Origin: Bacillota bacterium | Lineage (GTDB): Bacteria > Bacillota > Limnochordia > DUMW01 | Assembly: GCA_012839765.1 (NCBI GenBank) | Contig: DUMW01000009.1 | Span: 29,434-93,433 of the forward strand | DNA length: 64,000 nt | Direction: 5' to 3' | Part shown: one piece after another, positions 3,311-39,413 of the stretch | How the letters are laid out: the number at the start of each line of letters is the position of its first letter | Position numbering within the stretch: the stretch's first letter is position 1 | Notes under the pieces: model-generated | What the model was told of the DNA's origin: nothing | Database searches by the model: none | What the model saw: only the letters and a program-made list of their open reading frames with translations | Made by a program: the position numbers and the translations under genes

Positions 3311-3962
3311 ATTGTTTTTGCGCTAGTTTGAGGGATGTGGTCTGGCTCCACTGCCGTTTGCCAAAATGTGCAAGGCCCTTCGAACTCCTTCTCCCCAGCT
3401 AAGCCTTGCCAGATGATATGCCAGCCCAACCCGAAATATTGATTTGTGGTCTGAAAAGGGCCTGAGACTGTTTTGAACTCCATGGCCACCCATGTGCTTT
3501 GTGGGCTAGGATTCCAGTGTTGTCTGGGGGATCCCTCGGGATTGGGGGAATGCCCTTTTTGCAGGGTGCCAACGGAGTTTTTTCCCGGTATTCCCCAACG
3601 GGATGGCCCCCCTTTGGGTGAATCCTATCCCCTTCTCTTGCTGTCTTGCGCCCATTATTGTTGTCACCCTATCTGCGTGGAGCCGCAGAAGGGCAAGGCG
3701 CCCTTCCTTATTTCCCCTCTAAGCTCAGGGTTTCATAGGACTAGCCACGGTGTTCCTTATCCTGGGCCTGCATGGTACAATATGGATGAGGGGTCCCACG
3801 GATAATTGAAGCTATTCTTGGTCTTTTTGACACTATCTACGGTATGAAGTATATTAGTGATAACCTGGAGCCAGGTCAATGAAGAATGGTCGATTACTGG
3901 TGGTCTTGTCATCTTAGAAGTGGCGTTTTTCTGCCGAGTAGTCTACGGCCGTGAGGTGGTGC

Positions 3963-4994
3963 ATGATGCGAAGGGTGACGCAAAGTGATGTGGCGAAGCG
4001 GGCGGGGGTGTCGCGCAGTACCGTGTCCCTCGTGCTCAATCGCAATTCCGATGTTGTCATTTCGGAAGAAACCCGCAATCGGGTGTTCAATGCAGCCATG
4101 GAACTAGGGTACACACCGAACCTAGCGGCCCAGAAACTAGCCGGTGGACGGAACAATCTGATTGGGGTGTTTATTTATCGGGAGTCTTTTCCCTACGAAC
4201 AGGACAGCTTTTACTATGCTTTCCTTTTGGGGATCGAGCGCCAGGCTTCGGAAGAGGGCTATGATCTGCTCATGTTCACCCGCCACGATCGGCATGGAAA
4301 CCAGAGCATCTACCGCGATGGTGCTAACATTCTGACCATGGTGGACGGTGCTGTCCTCATGGGGGCCGAAACCAATAAGGAGGAAATCAGGGCTGCGGTC
4401 AAAGATGGACATAAGATCGTATATATTGGGCGGCGCAATGTGCCGGACTGTCAGTTGGACTGGGTTTCCAGTGACTATCGCACGGTGAGTGGCGAGGCCA
4501 TGAAGCATCTGTTGGATCTGGGACATCGGCAGATTGGTTACACCGCGCCAGTGGGGGACTATGAGCCGGATCTGGATCGGATCGTCGGTTGTGAGGAGGT
4601 TATTGCGAAAAACCCTGCTGCCCAGATGCACATGATCCCTGTGGAGGTCTGGAATGATCCCAGGGAATTGGCGGCCTTCATTCGGCAGAAGGGACTTACC
4701 GCTTTGATCCTCAGCATGGGCAAGTGTGCTGACCTGGTGGAGAATTTACAGCACGCGGATCTGCGGGTACCCGAGGATCTATCGGTGCTGTCCCTATCGG
4801 ACCAAGAGGTTCCCAATCCCAGTCGGAATTTCTATCCTACCTGTGTCGATCTGAAAAAGACCCTGGTGGGGCAAGAGGCAGTCCGCTTGTTGGTGAAACG
4901 TCTCTCGGGCGAGATAATGACTCCTCAACAGATCTGGATCAGATGTTCTTTGGTGGTGGGAAACACCACCCGTCAGCTAACCTCGGATGAATGA
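3963..4994 (+). CDS. LacI-family transcriptional regulator
   Basis: N-terminal HTH (VTQSDVAKRAGVSRSTVSLVLN) followed by a periplasmic-binding-fold sugar-binding domain. ATG at 3963/3966 is preferred over the GTG at 3951 because a GAGGTGG RBS lies just upstream. Confidence 0.8.
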   Translation: MMRRVTQSDVAKRAGVSRSTVSLVLNRNSDVVISEETRNRVFNAAMELGYTPNLAAQKLAGGRNNLIGVFIYRESFPYEQDSFYYAFLLGIERQASEEGYDLLMFTRHDRHGNQSIYRDGANILTMVDGAVLMGAETNKEEIRAAVKDGHKIVYIGRRNVPDCQLDWVSSDYRTVSGEAMKHLLDLGHRQIGYTAPVGDYEPDLDRIVGCEEVIAKNPAAQMHMIPVEVWNDPRELAAFIRQKGLTALILSMGKCADLVENLQHADLRVPEDLSVLSLSDQEVPNPSRNFYPTCVDLKKTLVGQEAVRLLVKRLSGEIMTPQQIWIRCSLVVGNTTRQLTSDE

Positions 4995-5115
4995 ACACTG
5001 TCCTGTTTGTGCCCTAGCGGAACTTCTCTGCTAGGGCATTCCTTCGGAAAACCGGCTTTTCTTACGGCTCAAAGGGTTTAGAGGCTTTGGCCAGTGGCGA
5101 AAGAAAGTCCTTTTA

Positions 5116-5145
5116 ACTTGCTATTGACACGCGTTAGTAACCAGT
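5116..5145 (+). promoter_or_regulatory. Candidate sigma-A promoter (TTGACA, 18 nt spacer, TATAAT) upstream of the FAD-oxidoreductase gene
   Basis: Perfect -35 TTGACA (5116-5121) and perfect -10 TATAAT (5140-5145) with an 18 nt spacer. Flanked by a direct repeat CGCGTTAGTA (possible operator). Confidence 0.45.
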
Positions 5146-5348
5146 AGTATAATGAAAACAACAGTTGGTAACTCGCGTTAGTAGTTGAAGTTCTTTACAT
5201 AGATAGTTCTGGTGTAGATGTGAGCTGTCCAGTGACTCTCAGGATCCATTAGTCACAGGTAGTGGCGAGAGCTTCCATCATCGGTATGTTGCACCAGGAT
5301 TTGTCGGTGTGATCGTAAATCATTGTCATTACGAAGGAAGGAAGATGT

Positions 5349-6680
5349 GTGGTGTCTGATCGGGTCCTCACCTATGAGCGAAGCATACCAGTACGGCACA
5401 GTGTGGACGTGCTGGTGGCGGGCGGTGGTCCGGCGGGGGTAGCTGCCGCAGTGGCGGCAGCGCGGCAAGGGCGGCGTGTGTTTTTGGTCGAAGAGCAGGC
5501 CTGTCTTGGTGGGATGGGTACCGCTGGATTAGTGCCCGCCTTTATGATGTTTTCCGATGGAGTGAACTTCCTCGCCGCCGGCATCGGGGAGGAGGTCTTA
5601 ACCCGGCTGCGGGAGAATGGCGGTACGGGCCCGGACAATGCCTTTTCCATCCGGGCGGAGGTATTGAAACGGGTATATGATGATATGCTCTTGGAAGCAG
5701 GGGTGGAGTTTCTCTTTCACACGAAGTTGATCGATGTACGGAAAGAGGGAAGGAAGGTTTGTTACGCTATCCTCGCGGCGAAAAGCGGCTTGTTTGCCAT
5801 TGAGGCTAAGGTCTTTGTGGACGGCACCGGTGATGGGGATCTCGCGGTTTTGGCTGGAGCGGAATACCTAAAGGGTGATGAAGAGGGGCATATGCAGCCG
5901 GGGACCTTGTGCAGCCTCTGGGCGGATATCGACTGGTCCCGGGTGAAGCCTCCCGATGATCGGATGCTGGAACAGGCCTTCAAGGATCGGGTGTTTACGT
6001 ATGAGGATCGGCACTTGCCCGGGATGTGGCGGGTGGGCCAAAGCCTCGGCGGCGGCAATATCGGTCACATCTTCGGTGTCGATGGTACCGACGAGCGTTC
6101 CCTCACGGCCGCGCTCATTCAAGGGCGGAAACTGCTCGATGAGTATGAAAGGTATTATAAAGAATACTTGGATGGATATGAGAGAATGGAACTTGCGGCC
6201 ACCGGTGCCCTCATGGGTATTCGGGAAAGCCGACGGATCGTGGGGGACTATGAGCTGTGTCTGGCGGACTTCCATAGGCGGGCCGTGTTTCCCGATGAGA
6301 TTGGCCGGTATTGCTATCCCGTCGATATCCATGCTTCAACGCCTACCGATGAACACTACGAAAGATATGCCACAGATTTCCATAAATTGCGCTACGCAAA
6401 GGGAGAAAGCTACGGTATACCTTACCGTTGCCTGACGCCCAAGGGACTGGACAATGTATTGGTGGCGGGCCGTTCCATTAGTTCGGATCGCTTTCTCCAA
6501 GGGTCTGTGCGAGTCATGCCCGGCTGCTACATCACCGGTCAGGCTGCAGGGATAGCGGCAGCCATTGCGGCGGAACGAGATTGTTCGGTGAGAGATTTTC
6601 CCATTGCTGAACTGCAGCGTCGACTCAAGGACTTGGGCGCGTATCTGCCTAACTTTGATGATAAAGAGGAAGCTGTGTAA
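5349..6680 (+). CDS. FAD-dependent oxidoreductase (FAD_oxidored / GlcNAc-associated type, Rossmann GxGxxG)
   Basis: The N-terminus has a VLVAGGGPAGVAAAVAAARQG dinucleotide-binding motif. Length ~440 aa. GTG start with an AGGAAGGAAG RBS. Confidence 0.7.
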   Translation: MVSDRVLTYERSIPVRHSVDVLVAGGGPAGVAAAVAAARQGRRVFLVEEQACLGGMGTAGLVPAFMMFSDGVNFLAAGIGEEVLTRLRENGGTGPDNAFSIRAEVLKRVYDDMLLEAGVEFLFHTKLIDVRKEGRKVCYAILAAKSGLFAIEAKVFVDGTGDGDLAVLAGAEYLKGDEEGHMQPGTLCSLWADIDWSRVKPPDDRMLEQAFKDRVFTYEDRHLPGMWRVGQSLGGGNIGHIFGVDGTDERSLTAALIQGRKLLDEYERYYKEYLDGYERMELAATGALMGIRESRRIVGDYELCLADFHRRAVFPDEIGRYCYPVDIHASTPTDEHYERYATDFHKLRYAKGESYGIPYRCLTPKGLDNVLVAGRSISSDRFLQGSVRVMPGCYITGQAAGIAAAIAAERDCSVRDFPIAELQRRLKDLGAYLPNFDDKEEAV

Positions 6681-6808
6681 ACTAATGTTTTCAAGGAAGG
6701 ACGGGTGCCAGGAGGTGGTAGGGGAAAGGAAATCCATCGGCTAGGTGTGTTTCCCTCGCCCAATTCGCAGGCGGGCAAAGACTAGGAGTAAAGGTGGCAG
6801 AATGCTTT

Positions 6809-8530
6809 ATGAAGACTGTCTATTTGTTGGTCATGATAATGGTATTGCTTGTAATCCTACTGCCTAGTTGTGTTTCGGTGGCCTATGTCCCTGAACTACC
6901 TTTCCAAACCGTAGAGGTGATAGTTCCTGATCCGGTTTATGTGGCCCGGCCCGGTGAAATGGTGACCGTGGAAGTGGTAGTGCGCTTTCGTGAGCGGCAA
7001 GAGGGCAGCGTGGTGCTCTTCGAGTATGAAGTGGTGGATCGAAAGGGAAACGTCATCAATACGCAGCAATATGAAACGAACGTGGTTTTGCGGACCGGCG
7101 CTGTGTTGCGGGCAGAAGTGGCTATCCCCGAGGACTATGACCAAAGATGGATCGGCGTGCAATTGGTCAAGTGTAAGGTCAACAACGAGGAAATGCCCTT
7201 CCGGGATCAGCCGCCCTTTGGCCTTGCGGTTAAACAGGATGGTCCTATGTACCCCGAAGGGGCCTTGGGAAACATCCTTGGTGTGAACCAGCACTATACC
7301 CAAGGTATGAGTCATGAATACTTGAGATTGCTTACGGAGTTGGGTGTGAAATGGGCCCGGGACAACGTCTCATGGGCGCTCATCGAACAGACCCCGGGGG
7401 TCTATGAGTTTCCCGAGGCCTTTGAAAAGCGGTTGCGTTTCTATGAGGAAAACGACATTGCCCTTTCCTTTACCTTGTTTGGACCGAACCGGACCGCTTA
7501 TCCGGACGATCCATACAATCCCGAAGCCTACGGGCGTTTCGCTGCGGAAGTGGCCCGCAAGCTCAGCGAGGACTATGACCTCGAATTCATCCTGATCCTC
7601 TGGAACGAGCCGAATAACTTCGGTTTCCGCCAGGATTTTGGTGGTCAGTGGTACGGTGCACCGCCTTCCCCCTGGGTGGAAGAGTACGTGAAGGTGGCCA
7701 ATGCGGGAGCCAAGGCGATCCACGCCTATGACCCCTCCATTCTTACCTTTACCAACAGTGACGTTATTACCAACCACTATTGGTTCATTGATAAGGGTTT
7801 GGCGCCTGAGATTAAGGGCTTTTCCATTCACCCTTACGGAAGTAAGGCGGGACATCCGGAGATTCAGGGGTATGGGAATAATCAACCGTGGATCTTTCCC
7901 TTCCGGGTGATGGATGATGATCAGTCCACCCGGTCCATGTTCCTGCGTTTGCGGGATGCCTACGCGGAAGAACTGGGCCATACCCCGGAGATGGTAGTTA
8001 CCGAATTCGGCCGTCTCATCGAAGGGGTCTGGGAACCGGGTCAAGCGCCCTTTGCGGAAAATGCGGAGCATCTAGTGGCGGAGGAATTACCCCGTTTCTT
8101 CATCCTCATGGCTAGCCTAGGGGTGAAGAGTGCCCAGTGGTTCACCCTGGCCGATTGGCGGTCGGAACGGGGACACGGGCTGGTGTTCGAGGACGGACAG
8201 CGACGCCTTACCTTTACCGCCTATAAGACCCTTAGTCTGGAACTGGGCCACTACCGTTTGGTGGAGCAGATTGCGGGAGCCGACAGTCCCTTTGGTGTGC
8301 AGGCCTACCTCTTTGAAGGTTCCGACGGATATAAATTGGCCATCTGGGATACCCGCGGTACTTCAAAGGTCTTAATTACCCGAGATAGCACTGACCCGGT
8401 CAGGATTGTAACCCACCTTGGGGAAGAACTACCCGTTTACCATGAAGGCGAGGTTCTAGAGGTGGACATTGGCCGTGGTCCCCTTTACATCTCTGGAGTG
8501 GGGTCGGGATGCCAAGTCCAGATTCCCTAG
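6809..8530 (+). CDS. Glycoside hydrolase, clan GH-A (GH5/GH39-like (beta/alpha)8 fold), with N-terminal signal/anchor
   Basis: The ILWNEPN motif is the clan GH-A acid/base NEP motif. The VVTEFG motif is the nucleophile motif. N-terminal hydrophobic segment MKTVYLLVMIMVLLVILL. An alternative GTG start lies at 6794. Paralogue of the 12334..13974 gene. Confidence 0.65.
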   Translation: MKTVYLLVMIMVLLVILLPSCVSVAYVPELPFQTVEVIVPDPVYVARPGEMVTVEVVVRFRERQEGSVVLFEYEVVDRKGNVINTQQYETNVVLRTGAVLRAEVAIPEDYDQRWIGVQLVKCKVNNEEMPFRDQPPFGLAVKQDGPMYPEGALGNILGVNQHYTQGMSHEYLRLLTELGVKWARDNVSWALIEQTPGVYEFPEAFEKRLRFYEENDIALSFTLFGPNRTAYPDDPYNPEAYGRFAAEVARKLSEDYDLEFILILWNEPNNFGFRQDFGGQWYGAPPSPWVEEYVKVANAGAKAIHAYDPSILTFTNSDVITNHYWFIDKGLAPEIKGFSIHPYGSKAGHPEIQGYGNNQPWIFPFRVMDDDQSTRSMFLRLRDAYAEELGHTPEMVVTEFGRLIEGVWEPGQAPFAENAEHLVAEELPRFFILMASLGVKSAQWFTLADWRSERGHGLVFEDGQRRLTFTAYKTLSLELGHYRLVEQIAGADSPFGVQAYLFEGSDGYKLAIWDTRGTSKVLITRDSTDPVRIVTHLGEELPVYHEGEVLEVDIGRGPLYISGVGSGCQVQIP

Positions 8531-8683
8531 TGATCACATGAAAGTTTAAGAACGTTGTATTGGACCTTCGTACGAAATTTGAAGCCTTCCCAACGACAGG
8601 AAGAACCACTTCGGAACAGAAGGACGGTGGTGTTTGAAACTTGATTCTTCTAAAAGATTACATTTTATAAGGAGGTCTAGACA

Positions 8684-9976
8684 ATGTTTAAGAAAACTCT
8701 GTTGATCGGACTAATGCTAAGTTTTATCGTCGGTGCCGGTGTGGTGCAAGCTACTGAGAAGATCCATTTGACCATCTGGAGTGACTGGAGTGGAAATATT
8801 CCGATTTTCCAGGAATTGATGAATATCTACATGGAACGGAACCCCCATGTGGAGATCACTTGGGAGTGGTCCTTCGGAGATCACGACAAACTAGTGATGT
8901 CCGTCATTTCCGGCACAGGCCCGGATATTGTTTGCTACGGTTTAGTGCCGGAGCTTATCGAGGATGGCATGTTTGAGCCCTTGGACAAATACTTGGCCAA
9001 CAGTGTGTTAATGGAAGACATTCCTCCCAACCTGTGGCCGAAGACCCAGTGGAAGGGCCAGACCTACGGTGTGCCCGCGATTGAGGGAGGTCCTGGTTGG
9101 GGTCTTTTCTACAACAAGGATCGCTTTGGGCGGGCTGCTTTGCCCACACCGGGTCCCGATGAGGTATTGAGCATCGATGACTTCTTGGCTCTCCACGCTA
9201 AACTGAGCAACGTGGGTCCCGATGGAGTCGTCACCGAGCTGGGGTTCTATCCGCCGGAGACCAATGGCCACCACTACACCCGTTGGGAAGCCTTCTACAA
9301 TGTCAAGGCGGTGGATCTGGTGAACGGCAAGGCTCAGCTGGATCATCCAAGGATGCTAGCTGCTGCGGAAACCCTGATGCGGATCTATGAGATCGGCGGT
9401 GGGCGGCAGGCCATGCTGGAGTTTGTAGGGTCTTCGTCCCTATGGCCCAGCATGCAGTCTCTGTTTGTGACCGGTAAGACGGCGATGATGCATGCCGGGT
9501 ATTGGGCCGTGTCCTCCCTGGAGAGCGGGGGTATGAGCGTGGATGATTACGGCGTGACCTGGTCCCCGAATATCGATGGGCTGAAGGTGCAGAACTACAG
9601 CGGTTGGCAGCTGCTCATCTTGTCCAATTGCGCCCACAAAGAAGAGGCCTTTAAGGTTGTGGAGTTTATCGCCTCCGGCGAAGGGCAGGCTTACATTTTT
9701 GAGAAGCTAAGCTGGCTTGGCGGCATGCCCCGTAGTCTCTTTGATTATGTGGATGTCTACGCCAATCCGCAGATTGCCTGGTTCTTGAACTCTATGTTCA
9801 CCGCAGACAATACCTCAGGTGTGGCGGATCTGCCCAATCCCTACTACAACCTTACGGCCCAGTTGTGGCAGGATGCCTTCTTAAAGATAACCAGCGGAGA
9901 GCAAAGTCCGGTGCAGGCTTTACAGGAGGCCAACCGGTTGTTGCAGTTGGAAATTGATGCTACTTGGGAAAAGTGA
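8684..9976 (+). CDS. ABC transporter extracellular solute-binding protein, family 1 (sugar-binding); no cognate permease genes adjacent
   Basis: ~430 aa with an N-terminal signal peptide (no lipobox Cys). Family-1 SBP-like sequence pattern. Strong RBS AAGGAGG before the ATG. Confidence 0.7.
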   Translation: MFKKTLLIGLMLSFIVGAGVVQATEKIHLTIWSDWSGNIPIFQELMNIYMERNPHVEITWEWSFGDHDKLVMSVISGTGPDIVCYGLVPELIEDGMFEPLDKYLANSVLMEDIPPNLWPKTQWKGQTYGVPAIEGGPGWGLFYNKDRFGRAALPTPGPDEVLSIDDFLALHAKLSNVGPDGVVTELGFYPPETNGHHYTRWEAFYNVKAVDLVNGKAQLDHPRMLAAAETLMRIYEIGGGRQAMLEFVGSSSLWPSMQSLFVTGKTAMMHAGYWAVSSLESGGMSVDDYGVTWSPNIDGLKVQNYSGWQLLILSNCAHKEEAFKVVEFIASGEGQAYIFEKLSWLGGMPRSLFDYVDVYANPQIAWFLNSMFTADNTSGVADLPNPYYNLTAQLWQDAFLKITSGEQSPVQALQEANRLLQLEIDATWEK

Positions 9977-10047
9977 GTTCCGATTGACCTAAGCAGGTTA
10001 ACAGACTCCGAGGAGTCTGTACTGGATAAACCAATAATCGAAGGGAG

Positions 10048-10605
10048 TTGTTGTTGTTGAAGAAGGGTTTAGCGGTGGTAATGGCGGTGTTGTTCCTCGC
10101 GATGGGCAGTGTGGCTTTCGCCTACGACTTTGAGGCGAAGAACAATGTCCTTGGGCCCCACAATGCCTATCACAAGCAGATTAAAATCGAAGCGGACTCC
10201 ACATTTGCCATGGGTTTGGGACCGGAAAACCTGATCGACGGAGACTATAACACCCGTTGGGTCAGTGCGCACTTCAATACGGGACCCAAACCTGGGGAAG
10301 AGTACGTCAGCTGGATCATTGTGGAGCTGCCCCATGCTGAGCGGGTTACCGCCCTGCGGTTCCACACTGGGCTTTCAGGCTACGGCGCTGGTGACCCCAA
10401 TATGATCATCCACTCCTTTGCCTTGGAGTATTGGGACGGCAATGCCTGGCAGGAAGTGGTGGTCATCGAAGGCAATACAGAGAAGGTGGCGGAGGCCGTC
10501 TTCGAGCCGGTGGAAGCCAGCCGGTGGCGTATCCGGGTAATCAATCCCAGCCGGTATGACTGGAGTGTCCGGGCTTACGAGCTGGAGTTGTTCCGGGCTA
10601 ATTGA
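10048..10605 (+). CDS. Small secreted F5/8 type C (discoidin) domain protein
   Basis: Signal peptide (…SVAFA) then NLIDGDYNTRWVS and a terminal …YELELFR, both characteristic of discoidin/F5-8-C domains. Paralogues lie at 10687, 62547 and 63266. Start is TTG (10048-10054) after an AAGGGAG RBS. Confidence 0.7.
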   Translation: MLLLKKGLAVVMAVLFLAMGSVAFAYDFEAKNNVLGPHNAYHKQIKIEADSTFAMGLGPENLIDGDYNTRWVSAHFNTGPKPGEEYVSWIIVELPHAERVTALRFHTGLSGYGAGDPNMIIHSFALEYWDGNAWQEVVVIEGNTEKVAEAVFEPVEASRWRIRVINPSRYDWSVRAYELELFRAN

Positions 10606-10686
10606 GGTTATCACGACTAGTAGTCGCCCACGGCGGCTACTAGTCGTCCCATCTAGAACATAAGCGAGTGGAGGGGGTTACGGTCC

Positions 10687-11256
10687 ATGAAAAGGAACTT
10701 GGTACTGGCTCTAACTTTGTTGTTGCTTGTTAGCGGCTGTATTCTGAGTTCAACTGATCCTGAACCTGACCCAAGTCCTTTGGAGCCTGCGGACAACATC
10801 CTTGGTCCCCACAATCCTTACCACGGGCAGATCATCATCGAAGCCGATTCGGTACTCAATGAGAGAACGGGACCCGAAAACCTTATCGATGGCGATCTGA
10901 ATACCCGTTGGGTGACGGCCCATTTAAACACCGGACCGCAGGAAGGGGAGCCCTACTTGACCTGGGTGACCATCAAGTTGCCCCATCCGGAGAAGGTGCA
11001 CGCCTTAGTGTTCTACACCGGAGTTGCAGAGAGTGGTGCCGGCGACCCCAATATGATCGTCAGGAGCTTCGCGTTAGACTATCGTGATGGAGACACTTGG
11101 CGTGAAGCTTGCTCTGTGGAACTGAACTCAGAACGAAGATGTGAAGTGCGTTTTAAGGCAGTGGAGGCCCAGGAATGGCGTCTGCGGATCACTGATCCTG
11201 GACGATATGATTGGAGTGTCCGGGCCTTTGAGCTAGAGCTGTATCGACAGAAATAG
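10687..11256 (+). CDS. Small F5/8 type C (discoidin) domain lipoprotein
   Basis: Lipobox LLVSGC. Same domain as the 10048 gene (NLIDGDLNTRWVT … FELELYR). Confidence 0.7.
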   Translation: MKRNLVLALTLLLLVSGCILSSTDPEPDPSPLEPADNILGPHNPYHGQIIIEADSVLNERTGPENLIDGDLNTRWVTAHLNTGPQEGEPYLTWVTIKLPHPEKVHALVFYTGVAESGAGDPNMIVRSFALDYRDGDTWREACSVELNSERRCEVRFKAVEAQEWRLRITDPGRYDWSVRAFELELYRQK

Positions 11257-11378
11257 GGGATGGAGGCAACCGGTTGACGGCCCTGTGCAGGCAACCGGTT
11301 GCGCGTTGGAGAACGGTTGAGAAAGGACCTGATAGGGAAAGGATAAGGCTTGTGAGTGTTGTCTATCTTTCGACTGTC

Positions 11379-12242: not shown

Positions 12243-12333
12243 AGATCAGCCCCGACAAGAGTACTTTTCTGTGGAAACATCCTGCTTGGGCTCCCCTTTT
12301 GGTGAACCCAAGAATCCGAAGGAGTGTTTGAGC

Positions 12334-30537: not shown

Positions 30538-30830
30538 GCGACGTACTTGTTCCCGGTCAGGGGTAAGGCGGAACCCCTGACCATCCTCAGACTACTGCTC
30601 TGAGGATGGTTGGGGAAAGGGTTGGTGCAATGAAGGAAGACGGTGTTTCGGGTGGAGGCGCACACAGGTCGTGGCGGTGAGGAAAAATAGTGCTTCATCG
30701 AGTGTCAAAGGTCTTTTTCGTAGTTATCATACCAAAATACAAGGGGTAATCATCCCATGGGTAGGTTGGTTTGCAGGCTAGTTCTGGTGTTTAAAGGCGA
30801 AGAGTCAAAATGAAAAAGGAGGGCTAATCC

Positions 30831-32084: not shown

Positions 32085-32127
32085 TGGCGATAAGAGAATC
32101 GATGGCTTGGACGAAAGGAGACTTCCT

Positions 32128-33069
32128 ATGCGTAAACTTGTGGTTTTGGTCTTACTCGTAGTGGCACTCTCGGGGTGGTGCCGGGCTGCGGAACCGGTGG
32201 TAGTTTTTGAGGAAACCTTTTCCTCTACCAAGGGATGGGGAACTGATCACGGGGGCACTGTTGAGGTGGTGGACCACAAAGGTGTGTTTGGGGGAGGGGC
32301 GGATAAGGAAGGTACGATCTTCACCGTGGCACCGATCAGGGTCGACTTGGATGAGGGGTTGACCTTTGAGGTGGTGGTTTCCGAGGTGGAACCGGGTGCC
32401 CAATGGCGGATCATGATGGGAGCCGGGGAAGGCTGGTGGTCCGCCCCTAATTTCCACGTGGATACCTGGCGTCCCTCCACCGAACCGGAGGAAAGGTCTG
32501 TGGACATTACCGCTTTGGCTGCGGAGGTCGGCCTTTCCGGTCCCCAGGACCTTTGGATCGTGTTTTGGGTGAAAGACGGGCGGATTACTGTGGAACAGTT
32601 GCGACTGATCAGTCGCGAACCGAAGCCGGTGGCTTCCAAGGATCCGGAGCTGGTCTTTGAGCAAGACTTCGTCTCTTCCTTGGGTGTGTCCGCCTATGAT
32701 GGGGCCGAGTACCGAGTGGAACAGCAGAAGGGGATTATGAAGAATTCGAGTATGGATCCGGCCTATGTGGTCTTTGGTCCTGTCCTTGTTGATCTGGATG
32801 AGGAACTGACCCTGGATTATAGTATTGTCCACATTACTCCGGGGGCCATGTGGAACCTTAATATTGGCTATAAAGAACAGTGGTGGCAGGGACCTCACCT
32901 GCGACCCTATGGCACAGATATGATCTTCAGCCTACGGAGTGGCTCGGTGAACCTCTCGACATTGGCTAGAAAAGAGGGTCTTGCCGGTGAGCAACGTCTC
33001 TATTTTGTCTTCGATGTACGTAACGGCGAAATTACTATAGATAGTTTTCGGATCCTTAAAAACCAATGA
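32128..33069 (+). CDS. Secreted protein made of two tandem copies of the unassigned family-B domain
   Basis: Signal peptide MRKLVVLVLLVVALSGWCRAAEP. The two ~140 aa repeats share the pattern GPV/I-VDLDEGLT-E-VVSEV-PGA-W…W…FDVRNG-IT-D with each other and with the GH9 C-terminus. Confidence 0.6.
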   Translation: MRKLVVLVLLVVALSGWCRAAEPVVVFEETFSSTKGWGTDHGGTVEVVDHKGVFGGGADKEGTIFTVAPIRVDLDEGLTFEVVVSEVEPGAQWRIMMGAGEGWWSAPNFHVDTWRPSTEPEERSVDITALAAEVGLSGPQDLWIVFWVKDGRITVEQLRLISREPKPVASKDPELVFEQDFVSSLGVSAYDGAEYRVEQQKGIMKNSSMDPAYVVFGPVLVDLDEELTLDYSIVHITPGAMWNLNIGYKEQWWQGPHLRPYGTDMIFSLRSGSVNLSTLARKEGLAGEQRLYFVFDVRNGEITIDSFRILKNQ

Positions 33070-33122
33070 GAGAGAAGGGGAGGGTTTCTCCCCTTCTCTC
33101 TACAGCAGGGGAGGCCGCAGGG

Positions 33123-35294
33123 ATGAAGACTGAGTTGCGCAATCTGAAGGGAAGGGTTGTCATCTATGTGGATGGGCATCCCTACCATGGGATATTTTGC
33201 TCCAGTTCCGCCCAACACGTGGACAACTTCTTGGACGCGGGCTTTCAAGTGATTGATACCCATCCCGGCACACCTTTGGGCTGGCTCGATCTGGATACCT
33301 TTGATTATTCCACTACCGACCGGAAAATTCGTTCCTACTTGGAGAAGAAGCATGATGCTCTACTCATTGTTCGGTTTTGGTTAGGCTACGACGACCTTTC
33401 CCAACCGGGTCACTGGTGGTTGAAGAGATTTCCCCAGGACTTGACAGTCACCTACCATGGTTCAACACGCCCTAGCTTTCCTACCTTTGCTTCACAGCAA
33501 TGGCAAAGGGCTGCAGCTCGTGCGTTGCATAACGTGATTAGCTATCTTGAGGAGAAATACTCCGATAGAATATTTGCCTATGTACCGGGGGGAGGACCGT
33601 GCGGCGAGTGGTTCCACTGGTTTACCTATTGGCTGGAGTCTAACCAGGATCCAGATGACTACAGTGAACCTATGCGTAGAGGCTTTGCGGAGTACTTGGC
33701 GGATCTGTACCAGGGGAACATCGAGGCCTTGAACCATAGCTGGCATACCACTTTTGGGTCCTTCGACGAGATCACCCTTCCTACACCGAAACAACGCACC
33801 ACTCCCCTGTGGGGTAGTCTACGAGATCCGTACCGGGAACGTTTTGTCCTGGATTTTTACCAATATTACAATGGTCTGGTAGCCGATGTTTTGATTCAAT
33901 GGAGTAAGGCGGCCAAAGAAGCCACGAAGTTTCAAAAACTGGTTTTTGTCTTTTATGGTTATCAATGGGTGTCCAGCGCACGGCACAGTCTGGCTCGGTC
34001 CGGGCACCTGGATTTAGCCCGGATTCTCCAGTGTGACTTCATCGATGGCATTGTAGCCCCGTACATTTATGACTGCCGTAAGCTTGGCGGGGTGGTCTCC
34101 TCCCAGACCGTGCCGGGTTCAGTTAGGCAGGGAAAAAAGCTCTTGATTAACGAACTAGATTTGGTCACCCACCGGGGCCAGGGGTGGATGTATCCGGCCA
34201 AGCAGCCTTCCACTGCCCAGGAGACCGTGGAGATCATGAAACGGGATCTGGCCTATAGTCTAGCTCAGGGAGCTGCCTGTTGGTTCATGGATCTCCACGG
34301 AGGCATGTTCGACGATCCGGAGCTCATCGCTGGCTTGCGCCAGGTGCGGGAGGTGGGGGAAGAACTGTGGCTGAAGGTGGGAGAACCCCAGGGGGAAGTG
34401 GCGGTCATCCTTCACGAACAGGCCAGTTTGTACTTCGGGGAGGGAGAACCCTTCTTGGCGCCCCTATTTAACTTGTTCAAGGTTTGGGAACTGGAGCGGA
34501 TGGGACTGCCCTTTGTGGATTTGGTCCTCTCCAGTCTGGCGGACCATCCTAAAGACTACAAAGTATACATCATCCCCAATGCCGTCTTCTTGTCGGATGA
34601 AGAACGGCGGTTGATTAAGGAAAGGTGTTGTACCAAAGGAAACACTGTCATTTGGTGCTATGCTGCAGGGGTCCTGGATCGGGAACATTTCTCCATTGCC
34701 CTGATGGAGGAATTGACAGGCATGAGGCTGGGTTATACGATGGAGCCGGGGGAGCTTACCGTCAGCCTTACTAACGAAGTCCACCCCTATTTAGAAGGTC
34801 TGTCACCCGGATTGACCTATGGGACCAAAGGTTCCTATCTTTGTCCAGAGGAGATCAGGGAGCAGACACTCCTGAATATCTATCCGGAGCAGTTTTCCAT
34901 CGCCCCCCGGATCTGGGTGACCGACGATGCGGTCACGGTGTTGGGGACCATAGAGGATCTGCGAAAACCGGGTCTGGCCGTGAAAAGGATGCCCGGCTGG
35001 ATTTCGGTGTTCTCCGCTGCTCCCATGATCCCCAAGGAGATTCTGCGGAATATTGCCAAAGCCGCAGGCTGTCATGTGTATACGGAGTTTCCAGGACAAC
35101 TGATGGCCGCGGAGAACCTGGTGGGTTTCTATGCCCACAAGACCGGTCTCTGCCGGATTCATCTCCCTATTTTGGCCCGCGTTACCGATGCCTTTACCAG
35201 GAAGGTCATCCACGATGGCACCAAGGAAGTGGTCTTGCCGGTAAAGGAGAATACCACCACTTTGTTATATCTGGAAAAGCTGTTAGAATCCTAG
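33123..35294 (+). CDS. Putative glycoside hydrolase, GH42-like three-domain architecture (beta-galactosidase family-like); family uncertain
   Basis: ~720 aa. The central segment KDYKVYIIPNAVFLSDEERRLIKERCCTKGNTVIWCYAAGVLD resembles the GH42 trimerisation (class-I glutamine-amidotransferase-like) domain. ATG 33123 follows a GGGAGG RBS. Confidence 0.4.
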   Translation: MKTELRNLKGRVVIYVDGHPYHGIFCSSSAQHVDNFLDAGFQVIDTHPGTPLGWLDLDTFDYSTTDRKIRSYLEKKHDALLIVRFWLGYDDLSQPGHWWLKRFPQDLTVTYHGSTRPSFPTFASQQWQRAAARALHNVISYLEEKYSDRIFAYVPGGGPCGEWFHWFTYWLESNQDPDDYSEPMRRGFAEYLADLYQGNIEALNHSWHTTFGSFDEITLPTPKQRTTPLWGSLRDPYRERFVLDFYQYYNGLVADVLIQWSKAAKEATKFQKLVFVFYGYQWVSSARHSLARSGHLDLARILQCDFIDGIVAPYIYDCRKLGGVVSSQTVPGSVRQGKKLLINELDLVTHRGQGWMYPAKQPSTAQETVEIMKRDLAYSLAQGAACWFMDLHGGMFDDPELIAGLRQVREVGEELWLKVGEPQGEVAVILHEQASLYFGEGEPFLAPLFNLFKVWELERMGLPFVDLVLSSLADHPKDYKVYIIPNAVFLSDEERRLIKERCCTKGNTVIWCYAAGVLDREHFSIALMEELTGMRLGYTMEPGELTVSLTNEVHPYLEGLSPGLTYGTKGSYLCPEEIREQTLLNIYPEQFSIAPRIWVTDDAVTVLGTIEDLRKPGLAVKRMPGWISVFSAAPMIPKEILRNIAKAAGCHVYTEFPGQLMAAENLVGFYAHKTGLCRIHLPILARVTDAFTRKVIHDGTKEVVLPVKENTTTLLYLEKLLES

Positions 35295-35340
35295 GTTCCT
35301 GAGTTCTCGCGAGTCTGTTGTGAGAAGGGAGGGCGGAGGT

Positions 35341-37167
35341 ATGGAGCGCCTATGTCGGCTTATCCTACATATCAGGGATGAGGAAGGAGCGCCCCGTCTT
35401 GCCCGCTGCTATGTTTGGTCTTCGGGGGAACGTCCGAAAGTGGGGGAAGGGGATCCCGACAACAACCGGTGTCCCGGCGTGTTTTTTGGTAGTACAATCC
35501 AGGTTTTCATTCCCTTGGATGTACCGGTGCAGGTGGAGGTGTACCACGGCTTTAATTGGAGTGTTTGGCGGAAGACGTTTCAAACCGCCGAAGAGGAACT
35601 GGAAATGACAGTCACCCTCCAGAGGTTCTGGGAACACCCCCGTTGGGTCTGTGGTGAAAGCCATTCCCACATTGCCCGGGGGGAAGGGAATCTTGGTCGC
35701 TCTGGGTCCTTTTCCTGGGTAAGGACCCTGTGTCTGGCTGACGGATTGGACTACTACCAGCCAGGATATCCCTGGCCCGGGTATAGTCCCCAGGATAACG
35801 AAGCCGTTGATCTGTCCCGCGTTAAGGAGAAACTAGAAAGGCTCAGTGATGAGGCTCTCCTTTTGGCACCGGGTTGTGAGTTTCCCAAAACACGTTTTGG
35901 TCACTTGTGCTGGGTAAACTTGGAAGGTATCCGTCTCACCGTTGCTGAATGTTTCGATGCCTCCTGGGAAGACTGGCTCTTCAACAGTCGACCCGGTCAA
36001 ACCCCTAGGGATTTCCCCTATGGACTACTATCCCTAGCGGAGATAATTGCAAAGCACCGCCAGGGGAGAGAGTTCTGTTTCTTTGCCCATCCCACCAGTT
36101 GGTGGTGGTATGGAGATAAATTTGTTCCCAACATCGCAGCGGAGCTGCCCTACCTGACCATGGCGGGACCCCTCTACGACGGGCTCGTGGTCATGGGTTA
36201 CCAGGCCGATCACCTCTATTACCAGAACTTGTGGTTCCACCTTTTGAACCTGGGTTATCGCATTACGGGAGTGGCAGAGGTGGATGCGGTCTGGGGGCGG
36301 AAGGATTTCGATCTGCCGGGCAAATACCGCAACTACACCTTTTCCTCCAAGCGAACCATGGAAGAGATTGCCCTGGGACTGAGGCAGGGGCGTAACCTGG
36401 TCACCTCTGGTCCCTTTGTGGGCTTATCAGCCAATGGCCGACACTTGCCCGGGGACCTTATACCCGAGGGCGATTATGAGTTTTCCATTACCTGTTGGTC
36501 CAGTGGAGATCCGCAGGAACGACTCAGTTATGTGGTTTTGTATCGAAACGGTAGGCCCTTCAGGGTATGGGATCTTAGGAGCAAGATTGTTCGTTACTTT
36601 GAAGAGAAGGTCACTGTCCGCGAGGACTCTCCTGCCTGGTACTTGGTGAAATGCTATGGTTCCGAGGCTCCGGAGGAGGCTACATTGGATCTGATGAGAT
36701 TTCTGCCGGAGCATCCGGGTTACATCCCAAAACGGGTAAGCCAGGTAGCCCTGACCAATCCCATCTATATTCGGCCGGTAGGACACCCTAGTCCCCAAGC
36801 CTACAGTGCCAAGGTGCGGGGATTCGTCACCGACCGGCACGAAAGACCTCTTTCCGGATGGGTATGGATCCTAGATCCCGTGGATCAGGAGAGTCGGAGG
36901 GAGCAATTCACTAGCGGTGAATTCTGCATCCAGGTTCCTCTAACGGCTTACGTAGAAGTGCAGGTGGATGGTTACGTCTCCCAGCGACGTTCCGTTCGTT
37001 TTGATTGTCCAGCCTTGGTGGAGACCATCGAGTCTGTGTATATGGGGAAGTTTAACCAAGAGAGGCGCTGGGCGCCGGGGCAGCTTTTGTTTGAACACCT
37101 GGGATGGGATGTGATTGAAAAGGCCCTGGGGGAGATTACGTGGCTTTTCAGATTGGAGGAAGGTTGA
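35341..37167 (+). CDS. Hypothetical protein, possible PHP/CehA-like metal-dependent hydrolase
   Basis: CGESHSHIARG (HxH metal-binding-like motif). 608 aa with no other recognisable signature. The stop overlaps the start of the next gene (ATGA). Confidence 0.35.
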   Translation: MERLCRLILHIRDEEGAPRLARCYVWSSGERPKVGEGDPDNNRCPGVFFGSTIQVFIPLDVPVQVEVYHGFNWSVWRKTFQTAEEELEMTVTLQRFWEHPRWVCGESHSHIARGEGNLGRSGSFSWVRTLCLADGLDYYQPGYPWPGYSPQDNEAVDLSRVKEKLERLSDEALLLAPGCEFPKTRFGHLCWVNLEGIRLTVAECFDASWEDWLFNSRPGQTPRDFPYGLLSLAEIIAKHRQGREFCFFAHPTSWWWYGDKFVPNIAAELPYLTMAGPLYDGLVVMGYQADHLYYQNLWFHLLNLGYRITGVAEVDAVWGRKDFDLPGKYRNYTFSSKRTMEEIALGLRQGRNLVTSGPFVGLSANGRHLPGDLIPEGDYEFSITCWSSGDPQERLSYVVLYRNGRPFRVWDLRSKIVRYFEEKVTVREDSPAWYLVKCYGSEAPEEATLDLMRFLPEHPGYIPKRVSQVALTNPIYIRPVGHPSPQAYSAKVRGFVTDRHERPLSGWVWILDPVDQESRREQFTSGEFCIQVPLTAYVEVQVDGYVSQRRSVRFDCPALVETIESVYMGKFNQERRWAPGQLLFEHLGWDVIEKALGEITWLFRLEEG

Positions 37168-37925
37168 TGAAGATCCTGAGGGATTATCACATTCATACAG
37201 AAAAATCCGCGTGCGGCCATGCCAGCAACCAGACCCGGGCTATTCTAGACAAAGTGGCCAACCTCGGGTATGACAGTATCGGCCTAAGCGATCATTTGCA
37301 CCCCGGAACCGATCGGAAAATCTTCCAACAGGTGAAAGGGGAAATCCAGCAGTGGCGGGAACAGAATGCCCAGGTCCCCATGGAAGTCCTCATCGGTTGC
37401 GAAGCCGACGTATTAGCTCCAGGGGTGGTGACTATCGACCTTAGCTTTGCTACTATCTTCGATTATGTCATTGTGTCCCCCAACCATTATCACTTGGCTT
37501 GGGTGGAAAAACCGCCCTGTAAGACAGCTACCCTGGAACAATGCATTGAACACCTGTTGGCTACCCATCTTACCGCGGCCAACCCTCCAGCGCAAATCAT
37601 TGCCCATCCCTTCACCTACGGGTGTTCAAGGTTTGCTGAGTTGGTGGACCATCTTGATGCCGACAGATTGTGGCCTCTCATCCACAGGGCAAAGGTCAAC
37701 CAGGTGGCTATGGAGATTAGTTCGGGTGCCGTGAACAGTCCCCATCAAGAGTTTGTTCAGAAGTTCTATACCCTGTGCCTGGAAAACGGAGTGAAACTTT
37801 GTCCGGGCAGTGACGCTCATCGACTTGAGGATGTCGGGGAGTTGGCCTTCATCGAGTCCTATCTGGAACGACTTGGCGCTGGACCGGAGAACTTGCTGCG
37901 CCTGCATCCGAAGAATAAAAGGTGA
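37167..37925 (+). CDS. PHP-domain protein (histidinol-phosphatase-like metal-dependent phosphoesterase)
   Basis: The MKILRDYHIHTEKSACGHAS N-terminus matches the PHP signature. GGAGGAAGG RBS. Translationally coupled to the upstream gene. Confidence 0.55.
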   Translation: MKILRDYHIHTEKSACGHASNQTRAILDKVANLGYDSIGLSDHLHPGTDRKIFQQVKGEIQQWREQNAQVPMEVLIGCEADVLAPGVVTIDLSFATIFDYVIVSPNHYHLAWVEKPPCKTATLEQCIEHLLATHLTAANPPAQIIAHPFTYGCSRFAELVDHLDADRLWPLIHRAKVNQVAMEISSGAVNSPHQEFVQKFYTLCLENGVKLCPGSDAHRLEDVGELAFIESYLERLGAGPENLLRLHPKNKR

Positions 37926-38156
37926 GCCCCGTCGCGCGTAAGGAGCGATGCACGAGAAAGGTGGCACTGCAAAAAGTCTCGTGCCACACGCGATCTCATG
38001 CTGCAGAAGGTTCCAGTAGAGAACTACTGTGGTTTGCTATACGGACTGCCACTCGGGCACAAAGGTGCTGAATCGAAGGACTTGGCAAATCTAGGATTAG
38101 GTGGTAATATACTGATTGTGCCGGAAAGCCTCCTGGATTTTGCAGGAGGTGTCTTC

Positions 38157-39401
38157 ATGACGAAACTATTCATCTTTTTGCTCATCATTTCTCTCTTTGC
38201 ACCTGTTGATGCTTCCAGTCTGACTTTGGACTGGGACTATGTCCTTCGAACATCGGTGAAGGAAACCGTTACCATGTCTCAGTTGAGACTGGCCGGGTCC
38301 GGTGCCCTAAACTGGGAAACTATGTTTTATTACCTTCCTGGTGAGCTGGGCGTGGATCGGGCCTCCCTTGATTTCTCCCTGCACGGTATTGAACATCGCA
38401 TCGCATGGGGACATCCCTTGCCCCACTTCCAAGGTCGCATGTCCATTGTAGGGGGCAATGTGCAACCGGGAAAAGGTCTTAGTTATACGGTGAAAGGCAA
38501 AGAGGGTCCCTGGAGTGCCACGGGAGTGGTCCTGTGGGGATCGGTCTTCGATGTGTGGGCTGCTCAGTTGAAATACACCCAAAAACCCTGGCAGCTTTTG
38601 CTTACGGGTTGTCTGAATTCCGTAGATTATCCGGGGGAGAAACAGCATATGTATGTCGTAGAGGGCCAGACGTCCCTGGGTAATTTCACTTTGCAAGGGG
38701 CGCTGGGCATGAGCCCGGGTTCCTCACCGTCCTATGCCCGGTATGCCCAGGTGGACTACCGCGGGAGTCAGGCGCGGCTGCTCCTAAGCTACCGGAATAT
38801 CGATGGCGACTTTGTTACTCCGGCCAAGTCTTCCTTTTCCTTGGGGCGGGGCCGGAAGGGTTGGGAATTGGGTAGCACTGTCTCCATCGGGCCGTGGGCC
38901 TTTGTGGAAGTGACCGGCAGTGACCTGACCAATCTTTCAGGTCAAAGGCAGTATCAGTGGGAGTTGGTCAGCGGTCTGTCCTTGGGGGAGCAAACCTTGC
39001 GGGTGGGCAAAGGTTGGAACCACAAGTATGAGGAATGGGTGGTCTATGGACTGGTCGGACCGCAATATGAAGTGCGTCTTACCCAAGGAGAAGAGAGATG
39101 GCAAGGCCGGTTGCAACTGGAACTTACTCCGCAACTGACGGTACGTAGCAGCTACGATACCGGGCTTTCGGCGGTGCGGGTCCAGGGTGATCTGGCCTTA
39201 GATGGGGAAACCCGGTTGCGGGGACTGGTAAGGTACCGGCATGATCAGCAAAAACTGCAATATTACGCTAGTCTGAGCAAGACTGTAGGTCCTTTGCAGG
39301 TGGAACTGGATTGGGGCACTTGGGATCAAGGACGCTTGGATGCCTACTGGCAGCACCCTAGTGCCTTGGGGGTTAAGGTGGTATATCATCGGGCTTGGTA
39401 G
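38157..39401 (+). CDS. Secreted hypothetical protein with amphipathic beta-strand pattern and C-terminal aromatic residue (OMP/beta-barrel-like)
   Basis: Signal peptide MTKLFIFLLIISLFAPVDASS. Alternating hydrophobic/polar stretches (LQLELTPQLTVRSSYD, RLRGLVRYRHD). Ends …VVYHRAW. GCAGGAGG RBS. Confidence 0.45.
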   Translation: MTKLFIFLLIISLFAPVDASSLTLDWDYVLRTSVKETVTMSQLRLAGSGALNWETMFYYLPGELGVDRASLDFSLHGIEHRIAWGHPLPHFQGRMSIVGGNVQPGKGLSYTVKGKEGPWSATGVVLWGSVFDVWAAQLKYTQKPWQLLLTGCLNSVDYPGEKQHMYVVEGQTSLGNFTLQGALGMSPGSSPSYARYAQVDYRGSQARLLLSYRNIDGDFVTPAKSSFSLGRGRKGWELGSTVSIGPWAFVEVTGSDLTNLSGQRQYQWELVSGLSLGEQTLRVGKGWNHKYEEWVVYGLVGPQYEVRLTQGEERWQGRLQLELTPQLTVRSSYDTGLSAVRVQGDLALDGETRLRGLVRYRHDQQKLQYYASLSKTVGPLQVELDWGTWDQGRLDAYWQHPSALGVKVVYHRAW

Positions 39402-39413
39402 GGAGGCAGACCC

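Follow-up and report, generated by a model that had tools for sequence, protein, structure and literature searches.

Horizontal gene transfer (HGT) hotspots without mobile elements occur between core genes and are thought to act through recombination at the flanking core genes (Oliveira, Touchon, Cury and Rocha, 2017; PMC5635113). Here we describe a candidate for such a hotspot in a Bacillota bacterium of the Limnochordia lineage (assembly GCA_012839765.1). We analyzed 64,000 nucleotides (nt) of contig DUMW01000009.1 (positions 29,434 to 93,433 of the forward strand), called the window throughout. A block of accessory genes lies between mlpA and the next gene of a conserved sporulation and diaminopimelate (DAP) cluster. 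We estimate a probability of roughly 0.6 that the stretch from mlpA to dapB is an accessory-gene hotspot without mobile elements and that this block is a composite carbohydrate-utilization locus.

The locus resembles the published hotspots in that accessory genes occupy gaps between core genes, no element genes accompany them, and the cargo differs. In contrast, those hotspots were defined within species, from many genomes, and imply fast turnover, whereas the differences that we found are only at the level of the genus or above.

The block also resembles polysaccharide utilization loci of the Gram-positive type. Such loci are recognized by a regulator, transport or binding proteins, and at least two carbohydrate-active enzymes encoded together, and the block has all of these. 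LacI regulators, a major facilitator superfamily (MFS) transporter, binding proteins, secreted and cytoplasmic glycosidases and carbohydrate-binding modules (CBMs) are co-located and mostly co-oriented, as in the known loci. Unlike them, the block has no ABC permease or ATPase genes, and it has in addition an IsdE-like protein, a MatE transporter, PAS/GGDEF remnants and three metallo-phosphoesterase-type proteins.

One enzyme of the block has a well-described counterpart. The D-arabinan cluster of Microbacterium arabinogalactanolyticum encodes the GH183 enzymes EndoMA1/2, the GH172 enzyme ExoMA1 and the GH116 enzyme ExoMA2 (PMC10509167). In ExoMA2, Glu431 is the nucleophile, Asp557 the acid/base, and His446 and Arg483 function in recognition of the sugar, arabinofuranose (PMC10509167). 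The GH116 protein of the block is like ExoMA2 in its catalytic and recognition residues and in having no signal peptide. In contrast to the D-arabinan cluster, the block has no GH183/DUF4185, GH172, arabinose isomerase or arabinose kinase. No block protein had a Pfam match to DUF4185 or GH172, and there was no tblastn match to the GH172 of a relative. Because the partner enzymes GH183 and GH172 are missing from the block, we did not classify it as a D-arabinan cluster.

The flanking genes are familiar. We take the gene order in B. subtilis to be ylxY-mlpA-ymxH-spoVFA-spoVFB-asd-dapG-dapA-rnjB-tepA. The genes that the window shares with this cluster have the same relative order and orientation. 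This lineage differs in that the cluster has three further fixed members (a gene for a secreted protein of 414 amino acids [aa], a YflT-like gene and dapB, which is under riboswitch control), and in that it has inserts.

Results

The block is missing from the same site in relatives

We compared the locus with two related lineages. MlpA from the window was 73% identical to that of the nearest sampled relative (P0002; loci L097, L098 and L099) and ~52% identical to that of two Limnochordia-like metagenome-assembled genomes (MAGs; L100/L101 and L130), one of which is named Limnochordia. A pattern scan of a genome collection for MlpA returned only distant M16 peptidases (identity of 38% or less), the patterns having matched the universal M16 motif.

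In the 73% relative, the gene order is BD-FAE, (GH172), mlpA, a 421/437-aa protein with no Pfam family, YmxH, YflT, GH2, dapB, dpaA, dpaB, asd, dapG and dapA. Only 106-154 bp separate mlpA from the next backbone gene in L097, L098 and L099, and there is no block. In the ~52% relatives, the order is GH18 (opposite strand), mlpA, dUTPase_2, a 422-aa protein, YmxH, YflT and dapB onward. None of the block proteins had a tblastn match in any of these loci, and a tblastn search of the window for remnants of the relatives' GH172, dUTPase and GH18 genes gave nothing below E = 0.2. Similarity to the relatives ended at the stop codon of mlpA and restarted at ~38077. Neither blastn nor tblastx aligned the spacer at the left junction with the relatives' loci, and translation in six frames gave no Pfam match; the spacer contains a promoter-like site at 3827-3855, ahead of the first LacI gene.

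The first-pass annotation had placed an accessory stretch of ~36 kb between mlpA (2045-3310) and ymxH (39414), with the conserved sporulation and DAP gene order at both ends; it listed regulators, glycosidases, binding proteins, transporters and proteins with unassigned domains. These genes are indeed present, Pfam confirmed the flanking order, and the left edge of the block (3311) stood. The right edge (39413) did not. We place the end of the insert near 38076, a position that is close but not exact, because the gene at 38157-39401 is a backbone orthologue and its promoter and leader (38077-38156) are conserved. For the same reason mlpA and ymxH, which had been assumed to be neighbors, are not adjacent in this lineage: a secreted protein of ~414-437 aa is encoded between them in every relative compared. 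In the suggested comparison around mlpA and ymxH, the 73% relative and the two ~52% MAGs kept the backbone order without any block gene. The block is bounded by core genes, mlpA on one side and the 414-aa gene and ymxH on the other, that are kept in all of these relatives. Based on these alignments, the simplest reading is that accessory genes were inserted into an otherwise conserved synteny block of sporulation and DAP genes.

Alternatively, the block might be ancestral to this part of the lineage and have been cleanly deleted from the relatives. We consider this unlikely, even though the composition of the block is fully native, all conspecific strains carry it, and homologues of some of its modules in two other loci (L128 and L121) are 44-55% identical, similar to backbone divergence at the class level. 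For deletion to explain the data, at least two lineages would have had to lose the block independently and precisely, and what remained each time would be a spacer of 106-154 bp (or a dUTPase gene) followed by an undamaged promoter. The relatives' loci contain no remnant of a block gene, and the window contains no remnant of the relatives' inserts. In addition, the GH42-like and clan GH-A families of the block are extremely rare, and no orthologue of ~70% identity was found. We favor gain over loss on grounds of parsimony: a gain is needed once, and precise losses at least twice.

Database searches bear on the same question. In a database that includes the proteins of the 73% relative, the GH42-like protein had its best non-self match at 51-52% identity and the GH-A protein at 44%. 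Neither family had an orthologue there at the identity seen for the backbone (~70-80%), which argues that the 73% relative does not have these two gene families, unless its assembly is incomplete. In a metagenome scan, the best match to the GH116 protein besides its own contig was 45% identical over the full length (49% for one partial match); the octapeptide patterns used could have missed an orthologue of 70% identity, making this weak negative evidence only.

The block has the composition of the backbone, and no mobile-element genes were found in it

We found no compositional difference between the block and the backbone. GC content was 0.540 in the block and 0.554 in the backbone, and GC at third codon positions was 0.623 and 0.652, respectively. 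The correlation of relative synonymous codon usage between block and backbone was 0.97; when gene labels were permuted, 25% of the permutations gave a value this low or lower. The tetranucleotide correlations of the block were inside the range found between backbone segments. GC content was 51-57% throughout the window (2-kb windows), and the + strand carries nearly all of the genes. There is no sign of recent foreign origin in the composition.

Searches for mobile elements were also negative. Pfam identified no integrase, transposase, recombinase, relaxase, conjugation or phage gene in the scanned open reading frames (ORFs; gene-like ORFs of the + strand and two minus-strand ORFs) or in six-frame scans, run with stop codons masked, of the two spacers at 3311-3950 and 20190-20929. 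The window contains no tRNA gene. The two junctions have no k-mer of 7 nt or more in common, no flanking repeat family was found, and a megablast search with the block had no hit among plasmids or phages. Of the features by which genomic islands are classically recognized, the block shows absence from the same site in relatives and has no recombinase, no tRNA or direct repeats and no deviant composition.

These results agree with the first-pass annotation in that no integrase, transposase, tRNA or flanking direct repeat was found and the insertion mechanism is not visible even after the junction repeat search that it had proposed. The proposed comparison of GC content and codon usage did not set the block apart. 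Of the suggestion of a laterally acquired or fast-evolving accessory locus, the accessory insertion is supported, as judged by absence in relatives; composition gave no recent foreign signal, and the composite block is not obviously the product of one event.

Could the block nevertheless have arrived in one event as an integrative mobile element (an integrative and conjugative element [ICE], genomic island or transposon) whose recombinase and att sites were since lost or eroded? The 35-kb size and the sharp intergenic junctions are compatible with such an element, and both the 640-bp spacer at the left junction and the degenerate stretch at 16.8-20.9 kb could be eroded element sequence. The absence of integrase, transposase, relaxase, conjugation and phage genes from the scanned ORFs and spacers argues against it, as does the absence of a tRNA, a junction repeat of 7 nt or more, a compositional shift, and similarity to plasmids or phages. 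Moreover, the two modules of the block differ in their outside affinities. We judge this alternative slightly less probable than ancestral presence followed by loss.

Independent assemblies support the structure of the locus

The host is a Limnochordia-related Bacillota from biogas reactors and not a Bacillus-type genome. MlpA, YmxH and the second LacI-family regulator (LacI2) recur as exact copies on contigs from several metagenomes of biogas fermenters (PRJDB5067 runs DRR066655-60, several SRR runs, and GCA_001577815.1). Independent assemblies were 99.3-99.97% identical to the window over 1-10251, 10930-31922 and 29414-49689. The only stretch that they left uncovered (10.25-10.93 kb) falls in the tandem CBM32 paralogues.

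That the locus is an assembly or binning chimera of unrelated contigs is very improbable: the source is a metagenome and short-read contigs break in the tandem CBM32 genes near 10.25-10.9 kb, but overlapping independent assemblies from several runs and projects cross both junctions, and the 62-kb contig behind L088 starts, by contig arithmetic, near window position 10.1 kb.

We observed that Illumina contigs of several runs end within the tandem CBM32-like paralogues at 10048-11256 (70% nt identity). This repeat probably causes the fragmentation of the locus in most public assemblies. Three readings of the locus were considered and rejected: that it is a prophage or ICE (no element genes were found), that its assembly is chimeric (independent assemblies agree) and that it is an island of foreign composition (the composition is backbone-like).

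Neighboring gaps hold different inserts in different lineages

Gaps near the block contain other accessory genes (Table 1). The BD-FAE gene between ylxY and mlpA is present in the 73% relative (67% identity) and is not at this place in L100/L130, which have the opposite-strand GH18. The GH2 gene is 73% identical in L097/L098 and missing from L100/L101/L130. Immediately downstream of GH2 is a second insert, after which similarity to L097/L098 restarts only at ~44034. It includes a xylose-isomerase-like TIM-barrel pseudogene (42638-43451) that is in two fragments in the window and is one 186-aa gene in L091/L092. The small ORF that follows the pseudogene has one predicted membrane helix, and on the right this second insert is bounded by the lysine riboswitch of dapB.

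GH172, dUTPase_2, GH18, GH2, BD-FAE and the TIM-barrel pseudogene are spread differently over the three lineages. Because neighboring gaps hold different inserts in different lineages, we favor, with moderate confidence, the notion that the mlpA-dapB region is an accessory-gene hotspot that extends beyond ymxH and is not a single site.

In the 73% relative, a GH172 gene (L097 7997-9904) lies in the gap just before mlpA; in the window, the ExoMA2-like GH116 gene lies after mlpA. The GH172 family includes exo-alpha-D-arabinofuranosidases. The two genes may be a coincidence, or both may be aimed at furanoside-containing glycans.

Table 1. Features of the window, in order of position.
Feature	Coordinates	Strand	Basis or remarks
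ylxY-like polysaccharide deacetylase, 3' part, cut by window start	45..494	+	Pfam Polysacc_deac_1; backbone
BD-FAE/alpha-beta hydrolase esterase, older accessory gene between ylxY and mlpA	727..1509	+	Pfam BD-FAE 2e-26
mlpA, M16 metallopeptidase, left backbone flank of insert	2045..3310	+	Pfam Peptidase_M16 + M16_C
Inserted accessory block, 34.8 kb	3311..38076		Missing between mlpA and next backbone gene in relatives
Non-coding spacer at left junction, 640 bp, species-unique	3311..3950		No similarity to relatives
LacI-family regulator 1 (LacI1), head of module A	3951..4994	+	Pfam LacI + Peripla_BP_3
FAD-dependent oxidoreductase, PF12831, no signal peptide	5349..6680	+	Pfam 7e-110
GH39-like clan GH-A glycosidase candidate, 578 aa, lipoprotein-type signal	6794..8530	+	Motifs, model
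Solute-binding protein 1 (SBP1; SBP_bac_1), signal peptide	8684..9976	+	Pfam; no permease gene nearby
Two tandem F5/8 type C (CBM32-like) secreted/lipoprotein genes	10048..10605 and 10687..11256	+	Pfam F5_F8_type_C
IsdE-like (Peripla_BP_2) binding lipoprotein	11421..12242	+	Pfam; no partner transporter genes
Second GH39-like clan GH-A paralogue (candidate), 546 aa, no signal peptide	12334..13974	+	Equals P0162
GH116, ExoMA2-like subfamily, no signal peptide	14203..16809	+	Pfam GH116 N-terminal + catalytic domains
PAS/GGDEF signaling-gene remnants, pseudogene	17281..18656	+	Pfam PAS and GGDEF C-terminus on separate ORFs
MatE (MATE family) transporter	18822..20189	+	Pfam MatE
LacI-family regulator 2 (LacI2), head of module B, divergent from MFS gene	20930..21922	-	Pfam; 36% identical to LacI1
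MFS transporter	22195..23454	+	Pfam MFS_1 1e-42
292-aa lipoprotein, truncated in window strain	23791..24669	+	Shares domain with 29911-30537 and Metallophos N-terminus
Secreted calcineurin-like metallophosphoesterase, 604 aa	24913..26727	+	Pfam Metallophos 2e-18
Secreted GH9 with CelD_N + PKD domains, 975 aa when intact	26890..29816	+	Pfam
208-aa secreted protein, paralogue of C-terminal part of 292-aa gene	29911..30537	+	71-74% nt, 76% aa identity
Solute-binding protein 2 (SBP2; SBP_bac_1)	30831..32084	+	Pfam
313-aa secreted protein, repeated domain also at GH9 C-terminus	32128..33069	+	blastp 45% and 37% to GH9 C-terminal piece
GH42/GH14-like TIM-barrel glycosidase, 723 aa, no signal	33123..35294	+	Weak Pfam GH42 match
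CehA/McbA-family (PHP-like) metallohydrolase, 608 aa	35341..37167	+	NCBIfam NF038032, 82.2 bits vs cut-off 80
PHP-domain protein, 252 aa, last gene of insert	37167..37925	+	Pfam PHP
Conserved promoter-like site + leader hairpin, right edge of insert	38077..38156	+	Aligns with L097 11375-11454
414-aa secreted beta-rich protein, backbone gene between mlpA and ymxH	38157..39401	+	Signal peptide
ymxH, PRC-barrel, 91 aa, backbone	39414..39689	+	Pfam PRC; 79% identical to L097
YflT-like stress protein, backbone in this lineage	39763..40257	+	Pfam; identity 87% L097, 61% L100
GH2 glycosidase, older accessory insert	40333..42114	+	Pfam GH2 domains
Second lineage-specific insert, 1.9 kb: TIM-barrel pseudogene + small ORF	42115..44033 (right end approximate)	+	Pfam AP_endonuc_2 on two fragments
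Lysine riboswitch ahead of dapB	44116..44290	+	Rfam RF00168, 126 bits; kept in L097/L098
dapB, dpaA, dpaB, asd, dapG, dapA, right-hand backbone	44264..49974	+	Pfam

The ylxY-like gene is complete (324 aa) in L001 and is in the same place in L097, L100 and L130. The order from dapB to dapA is the same in L097, L100 and L130, and also in L098, whose contig stops inside dapG. RNase J and a TepA-like Clp protease, identified with Pfam, complete the right-hand series, which runs from dapB over 44264-53123.

Glycosidases and binding proteins of module A

The 578-aa and 546-aa proteins are 63% identical (74-76% nt identity). The 578-aa protein had no Pfam or NCBIfam match. In this family the motifs WNEPN and TE(W/Y)G are invariant, over four sequences only; a word search gave four clusters, and there were weak GH5 matches among profile relatives. 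An AlphaFold2 model of the 578-aa family, of medium quality (predicted local distance difference test [pLDDT] score 63.8), had as its top Foldseek matches the GH39 structure 5jvk (E 8e-22) and PslG (4zn2). Clan GH-A enzymes are recognized by a TIM barrel with an NEP acid/base motif and a nucleophile Glu after strand 7. Judging from the motifs, the weak GH5 matches and this model, the two paralogues may be divergent GH39-like glycosidases of this clan.

The GH116 protein scored 555 bits against ExoMA2 (PDB 8ic6/8ic7) and ~115 bits against GH116 beta-glucosidases (TxGH116-type chains). The residues aligned with Glu431, His446, Arg483 and Asp557 of ExoMA2 were all identical, in the window motifs WEG, NTYDIEF, HVW and FR; this mapping uses an inferred 4-residue offset between the numbering of the chain and that of the paper. 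The sequence makes the protein a likely candidate for an exo-beta-D-arabinofuranosidase of GH116 subfamily 4.

The tandem CBM32-like proteins are 59% identical. The IsdE-like protein matched the NCBIfam IsdE model at 2e-27, under the curated cut-off. SBP1 and SBP2 are of the sugar type, and this third binding protein is of the IsdE/haem type. Outside the window, the contig L128, on which sporulation genes are also present, encodes homologues of SBP1 (55%) and of the 578-aa protein (44%) two genes apart.

The middle zone and module B

Between the MatE gene and LacI2, a minus-strand ORF of 60 aa (MKGMDAMDNYQVVLEFFEKADGPLNAG...) at ~20240-20420 was called in most of the conspecific assemblies spanning that stretch. 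It had no Pfam match and resembles a small winged-helix DNA-binding protein.

Several proteins of module B share domains. The domain common to the 292-aa protein, the 208-aa protein and the N-terminus of the metallophosphoesterase is 48-76% identical between them. The metallophosphoesterase (24913-26727) has a weak likeness to purple acid phosphatase. The top PDB matches of the GH9 protein were CelD (CelD-type endoglucanases) and BoGH9A. The 313-aa protein had no Pfam or NCBIfam match.

The GH42/14-like protein belongs to a rare family, with only 40 clusters in 5.8 billion proteins. After two homologues at 51-52% identity, the next are at ~40%, and the named ones there are from Planctomycetes, KSB1, Terrimicrobiaceae (Verrucomicrobia) and Lentisphaerae. 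Homologues of module B proteins are grouped together elsewhere: SBP2 (47%), GH42-like (51%) and CehA-like (40%) in L121, and CehA-like (31%), GH42-like and GH9 on the KSB1 contig L120. In KSB1, the homologue of the GH42-like gene is part of a large group of clustered glycosidase genes that also includes GH92, GH38, GH63-like, GH9 and GH140-like members. Sequence searches of PDB with the 578-aa, 608-aa and 723-aa proteins gave nothing significant.

Three metallo-phosphoesterase-type proteins are encoded beside the module B glycosidases: the calcineurin-like protein (24913-26727) and the CehA/McbA-like and PHP proteins (35341-37925). They are hints of a substrate with phosphodiester links.

By our count, the block encodes four glycosidase families (GH116, GH9, GH42/14-like, and the putative GH39-like clan GH-A family with two paralogues). 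At least five had been reported; the fifth, GH2 (40333-42114), lies outside the block. Export signals (signal peptide or lipobox) were found in the 578-aa protein, SBP1, both CBM32 proteins, the IsdE-like protein, the 292-, 208- and 313-aa proteins, the metallophosphoesterase, GH9 and SBP2. The FAD oxidoreductase, the 546-aa paralogue, GH116, and the GH42-like, CehA-like and PHP proteins have none and are probably cytoplasmic.

Gene decay and strain variation

Decay in the block is confined to three genes: PAS/GGDEF, GH9 and the 292-aa gene. The PAS/GGDEF gene (17281-18656) was present as fragments only in all of the assemblies that cover it (L122, L126 and L127). GH9 is interrupted at 29306 by a frameshift, a 1-nt deletion in a T run (T5 to T4). 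It is intact (975 aa) in L087/L089/L090/L094/L124/L125 and split in the window, L088/L093, L122 and L123. The 292-aa gene has a stop at 24472 (Q228, CAA>TAA) and is intact in L124/L125. Two of the three lesions (GH9 and the 292-aa gene) are therefore polymorphic between strains. Decay of several genes, as noted in the first-pass annotation, was thus seen in three of them, and is limited in that two of these are intact in other conspecific strains.

Compared with conspecific contigs, the block had 1.4-3.3 mismatches per kb and the backbone ~0.8-1.2; the segment with the TIM-barrel pseudogene had 9.5. These densities are consistent with weaker constraint on the accessory genes.

The 414-aa backbone gene and its leader

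The 414-aa protein is 50% identical to the product of the 421-aa gene of L097 and 26% identical (E = 3e-10) to that of the 422-aa gene of L100, both at the same position. It evolves fast: 50% identity compares with 73-87% for its neighbors. The protein is mostly beta strands, ends in ...YHRAW and has a weak match to Porin_4; a single-sequence AlphaFold model reached a pLDDT of only 31.6, and the porin-like nature of the protein is a hint. Such features may point to a protein of the outer membrane, in a sporulating Firmicute with a diderm envelope.

Upstream of the gene is a promoter-like site, TTGGCA-17-TAATAT, at 38082-38110. A leader hairpin follows at 38128-38150 (L097 11424-11443); CCUCCUG and the Shine-Dalgarno sequence CAGGAGG form its stem. 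The predicted energy of the hairpin is -17.7 kcal/mol (z = -2.05) in the window and -20.4 kcal/mol (z = -3.3) in L097. The pairing suggests that the hairpin hides the ribosome-binding site and that the 414-aa gene is under translational control.

Discussion

We propose that the mlpA-to-dapB stretch is a hotspot in which accessory genes would have been fixed repeatedly in short gaps between core genes, without mobile elements, each insertion leaving the downstream promoter and leader intact. The block from 3311 to ~38076 would be the largest deposit, a composite carbohydrate-utilization locus that came together once this lineage and the 73% relative had diverged. It consists of a LacI1-headed module A (3951-16809) and a LacI2/MFS-headed module B (20930-37925), with a degenerate middle (~16.8-20.9 kb; PAS/GGDEF remnants, MatE and the small minus-strand ORF) between them. 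The block also grew through old duplications of genes and domains in situ; its internal paralogues are the GH-A pair, the CBM32 pair, the domain shared by the 292-aa, 208-aa and metallophosphoesterase (N-terminal) proteins, and a repeat that the GH9 C-terminus has in common with the 313-aa protein. We infer that acquisition was by homologous or illegitimate recombination with no element-encoded recombinase, and stepwise assembly, the substrates and the regulation are likewise what we infer.

Outside the cytoplasm, secreted enzymes, lipoprotein enzymes and binding modules would capture a complex glycan and cleave it. Oligosaccharides would be imported by the MFS transporter, or by the binding proteins together with permeases encoded elsewhere. 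Cytoplasmic enzymes would then complete the breakdown, and the products would relieve repression by the two LacI proteins.

Several observations weigh against this model. No permease or ATPase genes for SBP1, the IsdE-like protein or SBP2 were found anywhere in the window, and no substrate is assignable with confidence. Stepwise assembly is indistinguishable from one insertion of a locus that was already composite. Conspecific strains from several reactors share one gene content and differ in point lesions alone, without the rapid turnover expected of a hotspot. The polarity of the change is based on two relative lineages only (73% and ~52%; three assemblies in all), with nothing between them. 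Finally, no donor was found, and homologues of block genes are all 55% identical or less; the argument for lateral origin is therefore from absence in relatives and patchy distribution.

A more specific interpretation, which we regard as speculative and unlikely, is that the block is a coherent system for feeding in digesters on glycans of bacterial cell envelopes, such as polymers from actinobacterial necromass that contain D-arabinofuranose or phosphodiester links, and that mlpA-dapB is a landing pad used across the lineage. If this were true, the user would be a sporulating, possibly diderm, Limnochordia-like anaerobe. Its tools would be the ExoMA2-like GH116, two enzymes from an undescribed GH39-like family, a member of a rare GH42/14-like family shared mainly with the Planctomycetes-Verrucomicrobia-Chlamydiae (PVC) group and KSB1, and three metallo-phosphoesterases. 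The GH172 gene beside mlpA in the sister lineage would fit a landing pad.

The phenomenon itself, a mobile-element-free hotspot with a locus for complex sugars, is known, and our results do not change the general view of genome evolution. The locus offers a clean and well-bounded case in which accessory genes appear to settle in a deeply conserved sporulation and lysine cluster, with no mobile machinery and with the downstream promoters undisturbed. The host belongs to a class of Bacillota that is poorly studied and common in biogas reactors. Its block could provide leads for enzyme discovery: the GH39-like paralogues, the GH42/14-like and CehA-like proteins, which current family libraries do not name, and a likely exo-beta-D-arabinofuranosidase.

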